Assembly: GCA_965222605.1 (NCBI GenBank)
Contig: OZ244960.1
Location: forward strand, 928,001-992,000
DNA: 64,000 nt
Reading direction: 5' to 3'
Origin: Candidatus Latescibacterota bacterium
GTDB taxonomy: Bacteria > Latescibacterota > UBA2968
A model generated the notes under the pieces. That model was not told the DNA's origin and did no database searches. It saw nothing but the letters and a program-made list of their open reading frames with translations. Below, piece by piece: positions 21,324-26,083 of the stretch. A program made the position numbers and the translations under genes. The first letter of the stretch is position 1. Every line of letters starts with the position of its first letter.

Positions 21324-22766
21324 ATGCGCTCATTTTTATTTTTTTTTCCTTTGTGTGTCTTTGTCTTTTTGTTTTGCACCCCCAAAGACGCGCATACCTC
21401 AACTTCGGTGACGCACACTGACAGTCTTTACAAACACGATCCCTACGATATATCGCAAGCCAGAGTTACCGACAGTACGGATGTCTATGTTACAAAAGCT
21501 TCAAAAGTGAAATATCTCTTGCGATCCCCCCGGTATATCTTGCTAACGATGATCTCTCCTTTGGAGAAATTCGCTATTCAAGTAGAGTATGCCAAACTAT
21601 GGGTTCGCTACTATAAATTTTTCACCAATAAAACGGGTACATTTGGTCTTTTCCCGCACGGGCAATTGGGAGGGGAAACGGGTACAGGGGTCGGGGTGCG
21701 TCTTTTTTACACCAATATCCTGGGGCGTAAGAACGCATTGACTGCACACTATATCTATTCGGGCGAGCAGGGGCAATTTTGCGAAGGTCTGTATATTGAT
21801 CCCAATCTATTGGACACGGGGCTTATTTGGGAAATTCAGGGTGGATATTTGCAAACCAAAAATAGAAATGCCAATATAAACGGCGCAATAGATGACGAAT
21901 CGAGGCTTTTTGAACTCAAAAAAGTTGATGTTGAGACCTCTGTTGAATGGCGTTTGAAAACGAATGAGATCGCATCTTTTGCGCCGCAGTTTAAAATAGT
22001 GGGCAGGCTCGGGTTTTCGCAGCGCGATTTTATGCCTGTATTGGGTGGATTGCAGCCGCTTTCCGACCCGGGATCATCACCACAGGCTCGTCTGCTTAAG
22101 AGGTTGGGCACAAAATTCAAATTTTATCGCTTTGGACTTCAGGTGATGTATGATGACCGCGATTATAAAAAACCAGTTCGCCAGCTTTCTCATCCACCCA
22201 ATTATCGATTTCCAGGCAGGATAGTTACACAATTTGGAGATCAGTTTTATTTTGCAAGAGATATTGGATATCCCGAACGCGGTGGATTTACTACCTTAGA
22301 AAGTGACTGGGTGACAGGTCCTGATCGCATTGCGTTCTACAAGATACGCGCAGAAGCTGCCCGTTATATCACGCTGTTCTGGAAGAACCGAATTCTGGTT
22401 CTGCACGCACGGATGGATAAAATGCGGTCAATTGGGGATGGATTTGTCCCTTATACCGAGTTGATTCAATTGGGTGGCAATGAATCGGCGCGCGGATACA
22501 CACGCGGTTATTTTCGCGGACAGGGAGCATTGCAATTTAATGTGGAGTACCGATATCCAATATGGGATTATTCGAATGTGTTTTTATTTTGGGATGAAGG
22601 GCAAATTTTCGACCATTTTGGCGATTTGAGGTGGGGAGGGTTCCATTCTTCGTGGGGCGGTGGCATTGCATTTCGAACGGAGGTCAATTTGCTCGGCAAA
22701 ATCAAAATTGGGCATAGTACTGCCGAGTGCTTCCTCATCGGATTTACGATGAGTCAGGCATTTTAG
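21324..22766 (+). CDS. Omp85/BamA-TamA family outer-membrane beta-barrel protein (no clear POTRA)
   Basis: Signal peptide, LGG..SARGYTRGYFRG loop-6 motif, NVEYRYPIW, and C-terminal Phe. Confidence 0.8.
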   Translation: MRSFLFFFPLCVFVFLFCTPKDAHTSTSVTHTDSLYKHDPYDISQARVTDSTDVYVTKASKVKYLLRSPRYILLTMISPLEKFAIQVEYAKLWVRYYKFFTNKTGTFGLFPHGQLGGETGTGVGVRLFYTNILGRKNALTAHYIYSGEQGQFCEGLYIDPNLLDTGLIWEIQGGYLQTKNRNANINGAIDDESRLFELKKVDVETSVEWRLKTNEIASFAPQFKIVGRLGFSQRDFMPVLGGLQPLSDPGSSPQARLLKRLGTKFKFYRFGLQVMYDDRDYKKPVRQLSHPPNYRFPGRIVTQFGDQFYFARDIGYPERGGFTTLESDWVTGPDRIAFYKIRAEAARYITLFWKNRILVLHARMDKMRSIGDGFVPYTELIQLGGNESARGYTRGYFRGQGALQFNVEYRYPIWDYSNVFLFWDEGQIFDHFGDLRWGGFHSSWGGGIAFRTEVNLLGKIKIGHSTAECFLIGFTMSQAF

Positions 22767-24085
22767 AAGACGCGGGGAAGACATTCTTTATGAAAAAGGA
22801 TTTAAATAAATTGTGGGTATGGGTGCTTATGGCCTGTGTTGCTGCCGAGGTTGAAGCGATCGACCGCCATTTATCAACTGCGCCAATCAAGTGGTTTGAT
22901 CCCGATAATCGCAGTGTTGCTCAACCCAAAGTAATTAAAAGGAATCTGATATGGGACATGGTCGATCACTCTTTTGTTTATCCAATGACTAAGAAACTGG
23001 ATTTGGGATGGAGTGCGCGGCGGGTCGGAAATATTCTGAATATTGCGCCAACTCGTCAGGCAGATAATATCAATGTGCTGGATGAAGTACCCAATTCATC
23101 GTGGTACACGAATCGGCATTTTCTTGTGCGGATGGATGCAGTGGTATTGGCCAAAGGGCCGGGGCACGCGCATCCAGATACGAGCGGTTCATGGGAGATT
23201 ATATCGGGAAATTTTGAGAGCCAGGCGCCTGAGTTTACAATTCAGGACGCAAAAGAGGATGTTTATTTTTTGAAGTTTGATACCAAAGGTTATGAGGAAC
23301 TGGCGACAACTGCCGAGGTTGTATCGACAAAAATTCTGTATGCCGCGGGCTATCACGTACCGCAAAATTCCGTTGTTTTTTTTCGGCCAGAGTGGCTTAC
23401 CATCGGTTCTGAGGCGGAGGTGGTTGATGGTGAGGGAAGGCGCAGGTCCATGACAGATGCAGACTTGCAAAATATACTGTCTTCTATTGAAAAGCAAGCT
23501 AAGGGGCATATCCGGTGCCTGGCAAGCAAGAGATTAACGGGTATTCCTCTCGGTGTTTTTGATTTTCACGGTCGGCGGAAAGACGATCCCAATGATCGCG
23601 TGAAACACCAGCATCGGAGGGAGTTACGAGGGTTGCGAGCGATCTCTTCGTGGATCAATGATGTAGATAGACGTGCAGCCAACACCCTGAATATGTTTGT
23701 GACTGATGAACAGGGACGTCAATATATCAAACATTATTTGATCAATATGGACGCGACTTTGGGTAGTAGTTCGGTGCGGCCTCACACGCCCAGGTCAGGA
23801 AATGAGTATTTTGTCGATTTTCGCTATATTGTTCCATCAGTTTTGGGTCTGGGGCTGTATCGAAAGGCGTGGGAAGATGCAAAGCCCATACATTTTCCAT
23901 CAATTGGTTATTTGGAGAGCGATGTATTTTCGCCCAGACGGTGGGTTACCAATTATCCCAATCCGGCTTTTCAGCGGTGATTGCTATAATAAAGGGTAAA
24001 GAAAAAAGTTGAGTAAACAGGCCATAGTTGCCAAATTCGAAGATTGCAAAAAAACCATTTAATTATCTTCTTCGAGGAGGCAACC

Positions 24086-25354
24086 ATGGCCAAGCATCAC
24101 AAGCAAATCGAGTATGTAGAACCCAACACCTTGATCGTTGGCATTGATATCGGTAAATCGGTTCACTTCGTCAAGATGATGTTAGAAGGCAGGCAGATCG
24201 CCGCATTCAAACTCTACAATGAAGGTATGTCCTTTATGTCATTGCTCGACAAAATCCGACAGGTTGAAAAGCACCATCAGTGTGCGGCAACCCTGATTGG
24301 TATGGAACCTACTGGACATTATTGGTTGCCGTTGGCCTACTTTCTGCGGGCTCATAAACAGCCCTTCGTCCTGATTCAGCCTTCCCATGTGCGCTGGTCG
24401 AAAGAGATGGGGGACAACAGTCCCTTAAAAACAGACGACAAGGATGCTGGTGTCATCGCTGAACTGGTACGCCAGGGCAAGTCTCACAGGGCCTATCTGC
24501 CTGAAGGGGTCTATGCCGATTTGCGTGCCTTGACAGCGATGCGCTATGAAAAGAAAGATCAAATCACAGCGGCTAAAAACGTGCTTCATCGTATCCTGGA
24601 TGTCCTCTTTCCTGAGTTTGTGTCCCTCTTCAGCGATATAACAGGCAAAACCGCACAACAGATCCTCAACGTAGCACCTACGCCTTTGCAGATACAAGCC
24701 CTTGGCATTGATGAACTTACTCTCCTGATCCAAAAGGCATCAAATCGTCGCCTCTCCAAAGCCAAAGCACAGGCCGTCCTTGAAGCGGCTTCCACCTCCA
24801 TTGGCGTGAACCAGGCCATAGACAGTATCTGCCTCGAACTGATGCAAACCCTCTGCTTAATGGATCTGCTTAAAACCCAACTGCAAGAAATCGAAACCCA
24901 AATGAACGAACACCTACAACATATACCCCAAGCAGGATATATGTGCTCAATCCCTGGACTGGGACCAATCAGTGTGGCATCTATACTCGGCGAAACAGGC
25001 CCCTTTGAGGCTTATCAAGCACCTGAACAACTCATCAAACTGGCTGGCTTAAACCTCTTTGAAATCTCTTCAGGATATAAAAAGGGCACACGAAGAATCG
25101 CCAAAAGGGGACGCGCAAGACTTAGACGCATCCTCTATACAGCGGTCTTTCCTCTCATCTTCCATAATCCCATCTTCAAGGAGGCCTATCACCGATTTAA
25201 AGGGGCAGGAAAACCCACACAAAAAGCCATTATTGCCCTTTGCTCTAAACTCTTACGCATCCTCTTCGCGCTGGTCAATAAACAAGAAACTTTCAACATA
25301 AACTGCAACACCAAAAAGGAAAAGGTAGTATCTCAAGTAAAAAAAGCAGCTTAA
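24086..25354 (+). CDS. IS110-family DEDD transposase/recombinase
   Basis: RBS GAGGAGG. GIDIGK, GMEPTGHYW and KTDDKDA form the DEDD set. C-terminal SIPGLG and AGL...SSG...KRGRARLR. Confidence 0.95.
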   Translation: MAKHHKQIEYVEPNTLIVGIDIGKSVHFVKMMLEGRQIAAFKLYNEGMSFMSLLDKIRQVEKHHQCAATLIGMEPTGHYWLPLAYFLRAHKQPFVLIQPSHVRWSKEMGDNSPLKTDDKDAGVIAELVRQGKSHRAYLPEGVYADLRALTAMRYEKKDQITAAKNVLHRILDVLFPEFVSLFSDITGKTAQQILNVAPTPLQIQALGIDELTLLIQKASNRRLSKAKAQAVLEAASTSIGVNQAIDSICLELMQTLCLMDLLKTQLQEIETQMNEHLQHIPQAGYMCSIPGLGPISVASILGETGPFEAYQAPEQLIKLAGLNLFEISSGYKKGTRRIAKRGRARLRRILYTAVFPLIFHNPIFKEAYHRFKGAGKPTQKAIIALCSKLLRILFALVNKQETFNINCNTKKEKVVSQVKKAA

Positions 25355-25535
25355 GCTCCTGGGATGAGCAGGATAGAACGAAGTTGTACATACGGGCTTT
25401 GACCCTGAAGCGGTGACCTATTCGCCTGCCTTCTCAGGAGCTTGAATGAAGCAATTTAAGGGCACTGACCCTGAATGACATACCTGTGTAAAGCCCTGAG
25501 ATATATCTGGCAGGAATACCTGCTCGCGCTCGAAT
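25353..25535 (+). ncRNA. Predicted bridge/seek RNA of the IS110 element
   Basis: Stem AAGCTCCTG/CAGGAGCTT encloses TTGTACA and AGCGGTG, which match the target flanks. A second loop holds AGCAAT and ATACCTG, which match the donor junction. Both loops contain GGGCnnTGACCCTGA. RNA ends are approximate. Confidence 0.8.
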
Positions 25536-26083
25536 TTGGCACTTTTTCTACTTGACTTTCTTATACCTGTACAAATCGCGATGGGTACTGGGGGGCAAAA
25601 ATTGCAATGGCGTTTAGCGATGCGGATTTGGCAGCTATTGTGAAAATAGGGCATTTGAGTGACAAGAAGGCTGAAGAGAGACTCATTCAACTTTTGATTG
25701 CACGCCGCGATAAGGTGGGCGATTACTGGTTTCGACGCATAAATCCGCTGGATCGCTTTTGGATTGACAGACGAGGATTGCATTTTGAGGATCTGGCGAT
25801 TGTGGGAAATCTGGCTGCTGAAGCAGAGACCCGGTATTTTTATCAATTTTTGAGTCGCGATGGAAAGGCGCAGGGTGCTGTGCGTCAACTCGATACGTCA
25901 GGGCACATACCCATACCACGCGATTTGCCGGATGGACAATATTACGGGATAGAGATTCGGACCATGAGGTCCGGATGGGCAGATAAGTACGTTCGGGTTT
26001 ATTTTTTTGTTTGGAATGTCGGGCTATATCAGATTGTACGGGTTGATCGGCAGGAGTAGTTTCAATCAAAGGCCGGGAATCAA

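Follow-up and report, generated by a model that had tools for sequence, protein, structure and literature searches.

An IS1111-like insertion sequence in a Latescibacterota genome with a readable target, donor junction and predicted bispecific 3' bridge RNA

RNA-guided recombination by elements of the IS110 family has been established since 2024, and the mechanism considered here is not new. In IS621 and ISCro4 (PMC11208160, PMC11208158; PDB 8wt6, 9t56), the bridge RNA carries a target loop and a donor loop, each of which reads both strands about a 2-nucleotide (nt) core (PMC11208160), and the recombinase bears DEDD and Ser catalytic motifs (PMC11208158). The donor is a circle whose junction rebuilds a promoter (PMC11208160). 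In the IS1111 elements ISEc11, ISPa11, ISKpn4 and ISPst6, the RNA lies downstream of the transposase gene (PMC11187229), and a long 3' non-coding region with a guide RNA is the criterion for this group (PMC11187229, PMC11208160). Here we describe an insertion sequence in a window of 64,000 nt (the whole stretch of DNA analysed: Candidatus Latescibacterota bacterium, assembly GCA_965222605.1, contig OZ244960.1, positions 928,001 to 992,000). Positions 23980-25569 of this window very probably hold an intact, and probably recently active, IS110-family element, IS1111-like by organization, with a bispecific bridge RNA 3' of its recombinase gene.

The element resembles the IS1111 elements (PMC11187229) in the downstream position of the RNA, in the placing of a word complementary to the top strand 5' of a word complementary to the bottom strand, in its subterminal inverted repeats (7-17 bp by the published criterion, 10 positions here), and in site-specific insertion, often into repeated hairpin motifs. 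The circle-junction promoter of that group has its counterpart here in predicted sequence, whereas the recombinase, with 422 amino acids, falls outside the 330-350 amino acids quoted for IS1111 transposases (PMC11187229). With IS621 and ISCro4 it has in common the target and donor loops, the reading of both strands about a dinucleotide and the DEDD and Ser motifs (PMC11208160, PMC11208158), and a circular donor is suggested here by the sequence of the ends. By comparison, the RNA of IS621 and ISCro4 is located in the left end, 5' of the gene, their core is CT instead of TG, and their fold is a row of stem-loops instead of two arms within an outer stem (PMC11208160); the order of the strand-specific words is also the reverse of that found here. 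ISPpu9, ISPpu10 and ISPa11 of Pseudomonas likewise insert into short repeated palindromic motifs, and some of the Pseudomonas elements that target repetitive extragenic palindromic (REP) sequences carry a small RNA gene downstream of the transposase gene, as here (PMC12288879, PMC11187229). The downstream RNA of ISPpu9 is described as not required for transposition and no hybrid promoter is reported for it (PMC12288879), whereas the downstream RNA here holds the guides and the predicted junction promoter consists of perfect consensus hexamers.

The closest named relatives in plasmid records belong to the ISBth13 family (about 30% identity), with ISBth166, ISSep2 and ISEc32 also found; the records name the matches merely 'IS110 family transposase'. 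Intermediate relatives, at 43-62% identity, turned up among protein sequences and were not among the results of a metagenome scan. The sequence-only reading had suggested that the element may be an untested ortholog; nothing relevant on ISBth13 was found in the literature, nor anything on IS110-type elements in this phylum, in a search that left aside the supplementary predicted-RNA lists of the 2024 papers, which may already list a member. The branch is set apart somewhat by the length of its recombinase, its low identity to named elements and the enclosing outer stem of its RNA; it is not a new kind of element.

The element, its core copies and its gene are placed as follows.

23980 to 25569, plus strand: insertion sequence, 1,590 bp including one core copy; four full genome copies with identical boundaries
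23978 to 23979, no strand: left TG core copy, from the junction letters and the single TG in the empty sites of relatives
25568 to 25569, no strand: right TG core copy, with the right target beginning at 25570, from the empty sites and an RNA-library contig
24086 to 25354, plus strand: recombinase gene, 422 amino acids, with an upstream GGAGG ribosome-binding site and Pfam and NCBIfam matches

The left junction reads cAGCGGTG/ATTGCT, with the core TG at 23978-79, and the right junction reads tATACCTG/TACAAa, with the core TG at 25568-69. The orthologous locus is uninterrupted in four related genomes (L126, L127, L128 and L130), where it reads ...ttttcAGCGGTGTACAAATCG... with a single TG, and one RNA-library contig from a related strain connects 23977 directly to 25568, leaving out 1,590 bases. 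The element is therefore 1,590 bp long and was inserted without duplication: TG at both junctions of the occupied site against one TG in the empty sites is the mark of core-dinucleotide insertion without target duplication. A sequence-only reading of this stretch had written the target as cAGCGG-TG-TACAAa and the donor junction as tATACC-TG-ATTGCT about a TG core, and both junctions together reconstruct exactly these sequences. The window copy interrupts a host gene of some 580 codons (22727-23980 and 25571-26059), and the core TG with the first base of the element forms a TGA stop that truncates the host open reading frame at 22727-23980; neither half has a match in Pfam. This host-gene site is occupied in one further genome (G073) and empty in four (G079, G080, G081 and G087). 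The non-coding parts of the element amount to 106 nt at the 5' side and 215 nt at the 3' side.

The proposal that the gene encodes an IS110/IS1111-type recombinase is borne out by both family domains, a family-level match and intact catalytic motifs. PF01548 (N-terminal DEDD_Tnp_IS110) matches at 1.4e-29 (103.3 bits; cut-off 29), PF02371 (C-terminal Transposase_20) at 7.2e-20 (71.6 bits; cut-off 21.3) and NCBIfam NF033542, 'IS110 family RNA-guided transposase', at 7.9e-67 (225.8 bits; cut-off 140). Among solved structures, the sole matches are the bridge recombinases ISCro4 (1.6e-10) and IS621 (3.9e-07); these similarities are weak and specific. In ISCro4 and IS621, the GID, E, KTD..D and ESG motifs align with those of the recombinase, and its DEDD candidates D21, E74, D117 and D120, together with the Ser-Gly candidate S329-G330, are invariant in alignments of 17 and 19 sequences. 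The catalytic residues of IS621 are D11, E60, D102, D105 and S241 (PMC11208158), the correspondence being made by motif and not by chain numbering. As judged from these matches, the protein is an IS110-family recombinase with a predicted RuvC-like DEDD domain and a C-terminal one that bears a putative Ser-Gly loop. In the 5' untranslated region of the gene, a 13-nt inverted repeat (24020-24032/24079-24091, 92% complementary) places its second arm (GGCAACCATGGCC) over the start codon; it is kept in close relatives and could mask translation initiation.

Four guide words lie in the 3' non-coding region.

25383 to 25390, plus strand: target-loop 5' guide GTTGTACA, complementary to the top-strand core and right target (TG+TACAAC); covaries with the flanks in L088, L093 and L135
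25409 to 25415, plus strand: target-loop 3' guide AGCGGTG, identical to the left target plus core and hence complementary to the bottom strand; ATCTGTG in relatives at ATCTGTG sites
25450 to 25455, plus strand: donor-loop 5' guide AGCAAT, complementary to ATTGCT, the first six bases of the left end
25480 to 25486, plus strand: donor-loop 3' guide ATACCTG, identical to the right end's final five bases followed by the core

All motif positions given in the sequence-only reading were recovered, and its central statement, that the guides match this very insertion, holds: loop 1 corresponds to the target and loop 2 to the abutted element ends. Its TTGTACA at 25384-90 extends to GTTGTACA at 25383-90. 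As the right-target guide is thus 8 nt long and specifies TACAAC, the target is indeed specified by the guides, but its length is 13 bp, AGCGG-TG-TACAAC, and not the 12 bp first given. In each loop, one word complementary to the top strand is followed by one identical to it; the target-loop guides flank GGGCTTTGACCC+TGA (25394-25408) and the donor-loop guides flank GGGCACTGACCC+TGA (25460-74). The co-occurrence of the four words is not a matter of chance. The 176-nt non-coding region was simulated 200,000 times by a first-order Markov model with the same dinucleotide make-up; the single words occurred 638, 1047, 7466 and 5994 times and at least two words together 316 times, whereas all four never co-occurred (0 of 200,000); the product of the single-word frequencies is 1.9e-8. 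Inspected by eye, the base after each 3' guide fits the recombinant product here (A after AGCGGTG, T after ATACCTG). No claim is made for an IS621-like handshake pairing, likewise sought by eye, and a distant relative (L157) is without it.

All four full copies in this genome (identities of 100, 100, 100 and 99%, all four frames open) have AGCGGTG as their left flank and TACAA as their right flank, so that the other genomic copies sit in AGCGG-TG-TACAA sites, a check that the sequence-only reading had proposed. The next base is C in three copies, as the 8-nt guide predicts, and A in the window copy. Eight further copies with the same guides were found in G073 (n=7, 95-96% recombinase identity) and G076 (n=1, 92%); their right flank is TACAA in 8 of 8, and their left flank is AGCGGTG in 7 of 8 and AACGGTG, with one mismatch, in the remaining one (L092). 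The distribution of the element is patchy, with 5 of 21 genomes of the genus positive when this genome is counted, and, in the phylum as a whole, 6 positive genomes among 168, just one of which lies outside the genus. The 12-mer target is present and unoccupied at 24 sites in this genome (L101-L124), against 0 for the reversed control, and 21 of these 24 continue with C and are perfect 13-bp targets. Most of the unoccupied targets are placed at the base of a short, variable hairpin (...ACTG-loop-CAGTTCA), a REP-like context known for the IS110 family.

The target word itself is a member of a dispersed short-motif family, consisting of AGCGGTGTACAACTG, a variable loop and CAGTTCA, and a subset of these motifs lies within a longer repeat starting gtcattctgagcg. 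A second repeated word, ATCTGTGTTCATC, has 16 occurrences, at times in tandem 10 nt apart. Elsewhere in the genome, a remnant of about 115 nt (L005:1500-1640, equivalent to G000:C1:6101667-6101773 and surroundings, minus strand) retains only the 3' end of the element, beginning at the donor 3' guide and reaching the right end. The remnant lies in a REP-like site with the left flank AACGGTG, its deletion endpoint and left junction share TGA, and its sequence is closer to the G083 variant, with the target guide AACGGTG, than to the resident copies. A second element variant thus seems, from this remnant, to have once been present in this genome.

Covariation of guides and targets among homologues had been set as the result on which the bridge-RNA interpretation would stand or fall, and the outcome speaks for that interpretation. 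In relatives with 77-84% recombinase identity (L088, L093 and L135), only the target-loop words differ, these relatives sit in correspondingly changed sites, and the donor words and element ends are unchanged. L088 carries the guides GATGAACA and ATCTGTG and has the flanks ATCTGTG/TTCATC, a perfect match. L093 has the same guides, GATGAACA and ATCTGTG, with one mismatch in its right flank TTTATC, and L135 has GATAAACA and ATCTGTG with one mismatch in its right flank TCTATC; in L089, the guide AACGGTG faces the flank AGCGGTG, again with one mismatch. It seems that one right-target mismatch is tolerated, or that the guides changed by drift once the element had inserted. For L093, the right flank fits the L135 guide better than its own guide, and that of L135 is perfect for neither. 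The second target word is repeated in five genomes of the genus, with 1-16 copies, and the controls gave 0.

The concordance extends to more remote relatives from Bacillota, Acidobacteriota and metagenome contigs (35-41% identity), in which the same guide layout is readable. There the donor 5' guide changes with the left end (AGCATT with AATGCT; AGCAAG with CTTGCT), and the distant relatives have their own right-end words at the position of the donor 3' guide. An 18-locus matrix was assembled from 16 of the 22 solutions of a loop-restricted scan, namely the ones that carry TTGA close to the right end and TATAA close to the left end, and from L135 and L093, which were added via their conserved ends. 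Matched to its own flank, a locus's own loop scores a mean of 15.0 nt (range 10-19), against a mean of 6.5 nt with other loops, and about nine distinct specificities are visible. Natural redirection has been reported for the IS110-type pair ISEc21/ISMch6, which has an upstream non-coding region (PMC11187229). Taken with published work on other family members, the natural retargeting leads us to infer that this element would be programmable.

The guide words are set in a conserved fold of about 170 nt directly 3' of the recombinase stop codon.

25361 to 25529, plus strand: bridge RNA structured core, from the consensus fold with pair counts on 8 close and 70 model-aligned sequences
25361-63/25527-29 and 25365-72/25519-26, plus strand: outer stem P1, consensus fold
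25376-80/25419-23, plus strand: target arm P2, consensus fold
25425-30/25509-14, plus strand: donor arm P3, consensus fold
25432-38/25495-25501 and 25440-43/25491-94, plus strand: donor arm P4, consensus fold
25394 to 25405, plus strand: target-loop distal hairpin GGGC...GACCC, three pairs, 100% paired, recovered by sequence-only alignment
25460 to 25471, plus strand: donor-loop distal hairpin GGGC...GACCC, from model-aligned pair counts and sequence-only alignment

Covariation supports a three-way junction, predicted to consist of an outer stem and two arms, each an internal loop under a GGGC...GACCC hairpin. Pairings of CCTGCC with GGCAGG and of GAGCAGG with CCTGCTC contribute to it, the outer stem encloses both arms, and the donor loop is closed by CAGGAGCTT (25432-43) pairing with AAGCCCTGAGA (25491-25501). 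Among the 8 close sequences, 3 pairs of the consensus fold show compensatory changes. A covariance model, R1, built from these 8 sequences gave, below an E of 0.001, matches in 62 of 100 loci and 21 of 73 loci, every one full-length and on the recombinase strand, and the matches reach relatives at 35-41% recombinase identity. Of the cells in 70 model-aligned rows, 91.3% are paired; shuffles give 60.2% and slid partners at most 50%, and double-sided changes are found in 40 of 40 pairs. Furthermore, G-U pairs occur on the plus strand only (for example T25365 with G25526), which is consistent with an RNA that runs in the gene's sense. An unconstrained fold of 25361-25529 yields P1, P3 and P4. The fold of 25340-25570 alone has a z of only -0.72, so that stability by itself is no marker of the RNA, and a search of Rfam gave 0 matches at E up to 1 (23800-25800, both strands). 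A candidate terminator hairpin, GGCAGG/CCTGCT (25509-25524), was rejected: base 25521 changes with 25370 and not with 25512.

The ends of the element carry two halves of a promoter and a pair of subterminal repeats.

23985 to 23990, plus strand: TATAAT, -10 half of a junction promoter, completed only when the right end abuts the left end
25552 to 25557, plus strand: TTGACT, -35 half of the junction promoter; TTGAC is kept near the right end in distant relatives
23985 to 23994, plus strand: left subterminal inverted repeat TATAATAAAG, 9 of 10 positions complementary to 25556-65
25556 to 25565, plus strand: right subterminal inverted repeat CTTTCTTATA, partner of 23985-94

When the ends are joined computationally, TTGACT, a 17-nt spacer and TATAAT form a perfect consensus hexamer pair, and distant relatives show the same TTGAC...TATAA geometry at their ends. 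For other family members, a promoter that the circle junction rebuilds has been described (PMC11208160, PMC11187229). The two arms of the subterminal repeat change together in distant relatives (TAACCCAG, TAACCAAG, TAACAAAG); the repeat finder lists a shifted version and not the 23985-94/25556-65 register. Further inside, a perfect 12-nt inverted repeat (24029-40/25530-41) connects the 5' untranslated region with a stretch just past the outer stem of the RNA; 7 nt of it remain complementary in the 77-84% relatives, and it could represent a long-range pairing in the mRNA or a second subterminal repeat. Two RNA-library contigs (25107-25564 and 25154-25574; two runs of one study) span the gene interior through the whole non-coding region without differences, and are compatible with an RNA made by read-through.

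In the mechanism that we propose, loop 1 (GTTGTACA, AGCGGTG) would pair with both strands of the 13-bp target AGCGG-TG-TACAAC, and loop 2 (AGCAAT, ATACCTG) with both strands of the abutted-end junction ATACC-TG-ATTGCT. The element would leave as a circle, and the abutted ends would create the TTGACT-17 nt-TATAAT promoter, driving the recombinase gene and then, by read-through, the RNA. Recombinase dimers on the two loops would join the circle junction to the target, with strand exchange at the TG core and no duplication. By analogy with published family members, we infer transcription and processing of the RNA, its binding by the recombinase, the circular intermediate and the strand-exchange chemistry.

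A different helix may form over the recombinase stop codon.

25353 to 25364, plus strand: alternative 5' strand AAGCTCCTGGGA, over the stop codon, able to pair with 25432-43

Here AAGCTCCTG(GGA), at 25353-64, and (TCT)CAGGAGCTT, at 25432-43, form an inverted repeat of 12 nt (92% complementary). The sequence-only reading had taken AAGCTCCTG/CAGGAGCTT as the helix closing loop 1; the complementarity is real, but the pairing is specific to a subgroup and does not serve as a closing helix across the family, where the conserved partner of 25432-43 is 25491-25501. It has about -19.7 kcal/mol, with z from -5.6 to -7.3 in 8 of 8 close rows and z<-2 in 1 of 62 distant rows. The minimum-free-energy fold flips to it once the RNA starts at 25349 (12 more 5' bases), and takes it whenever the RNA begins upstream of 25361. 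One could therefore ask whether the working RNA is a short target-loop hairpin (about 25353-25443, 91 nt) closed by AAGCTCCTGGGA/TCTCAGGAGCTT, with the second loop dispensable or present only in a precursor. We consider this unlikely. In its favour, the helix is strong and invariant in 8 close relatives, and short seekRNAs of 82-96 nt are reported as the main transposase-bound species of ISEc11, ISPa11 and ISKpn4, beside others of about 150 nt (PMC11187229). However, the helix shows 0 compensatory pairs among close relatives and is absent from distant ones, its 3' strand has 25491-25501 as partner in the conserved fold, and the donor-loop words follow the element ends across distant relatives, which is hard to explain for a loop without a role. 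A more speculative idea, which we also hold unlikely, is that 25353-64, as a mimic of the donor-arm stem's 3' strand, captures the 5' strand of that stem (25432-43), giving a two-state transcript in the Latescibacterota-type subgroup. With 25353-64 present and free, the transcript would form a hairpin with the target loop only; with this segment processed off or covered by a terminating ribosome, it would fold into the full two-loop bridge RNA. If true, such a switch would couple the folding of the donor loop, and with it integration competence, to translation of the recombinase mRNA or to 5' processing. We know of no published report of such a switch in bridge RNAs, no search for one having been made.

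That the internal words act instead as DNA, as protein-binding sites or as single-strand DNA guides in the manner of IS200/IS605, is highly improbable. Covariation of words and flanks would also be expected of a DNA guide, and the RNA is known here from sequence and not by direct detection; against this stand the covarying helices round the words and the G-U pairs confined to the gene's strand, which fit a transcript and not duplex DNA, and the membership of the recombinase in a family whose RNA guidance has been shown biochemically and structurally (PMC11208160, PMC11208158, PMC11187229). It is also improbable, if less so, that the copy is decayed or domesticated and immobile, with guide matches that are relics. 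Such a state could be read from the presence of just 4 copies beside 21 free perfect targets, from the target-arm mismatch in three of the four resident copies, in which A at 25420 (G in all other variants) breaks one pair, and from the 115-nt remnant of another variant. Three copies, however, share 100% identity across about 1.6 kb, the frame is open in all four, the catalytic motifs are preserved, presence in the genus is patchy and the orthologous site is empty in 4 relatives.

The unoccupied targets, from which low activity or recent arrival follows, and the broken target-arm pair also weigh against our preferred reading of an intact, RNA-guided element, as do the following points. The right flank of the window copy, TACAAA, has one mismatch to the guide-specified TACAAC, and the donor 5' guide has only 6 nt and no pairing with the core. 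A genome-blind scan for all four guides as exact words set real loci apart from controls to a modest degree only, with 28 of 161 loci solved, against 8 with reversed and 5 with swapped-flank controls; because the geometry was wrong in several of its distant solutions, the loop-restricted scan took its place and solved 22 of 70 rows at exact-match thresholds, some of the unsolved 48 lying at contig ends. The strongest support for the fold comes from an alignment fitted to the model, RNAalifold on a sequence-only alignment of 30 RNAs recovers the two distal hairpins alone (6 pairs), and when 62 distant rows are folded without constraint, the median share of model pairs present is 50%. A promoter scan found no plus-strand promoter-like site inside the element, so that the RNA most likely derives from read-through of the recombinase transcript, as proposed for ISEc11 (PMC11187229); the accompanying terminator scan found no convincing terminator after the RNA. 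The RNA-library contigs show neither start, end nor strand and may stem from library DNA, and no circle junction was present in the contigs of four RNA-library runs.

As an intact element with a predicted bispecific 3' bridge RNA, the locus offers a fully readable case, in which target, donor, core, junction promoter and empty site can all be taken from sequence alone. It represents an under-described branch with recombinases of about 420 amino acids and a 3' RNA with a predicted three-way junction, reaching from Latescibacterota-titled genomes to Bacillota and metagenomes, of which the covariance model R1 is able to find further members. The natural reprogramming series supplies guide-target pairs that are ready for use in tests of this branch as a source of an orthogonal bridge recombinase. 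As regards the host, a repeated hairpin-motif family is marked by the element, which also splits a gene without a Pfam match.

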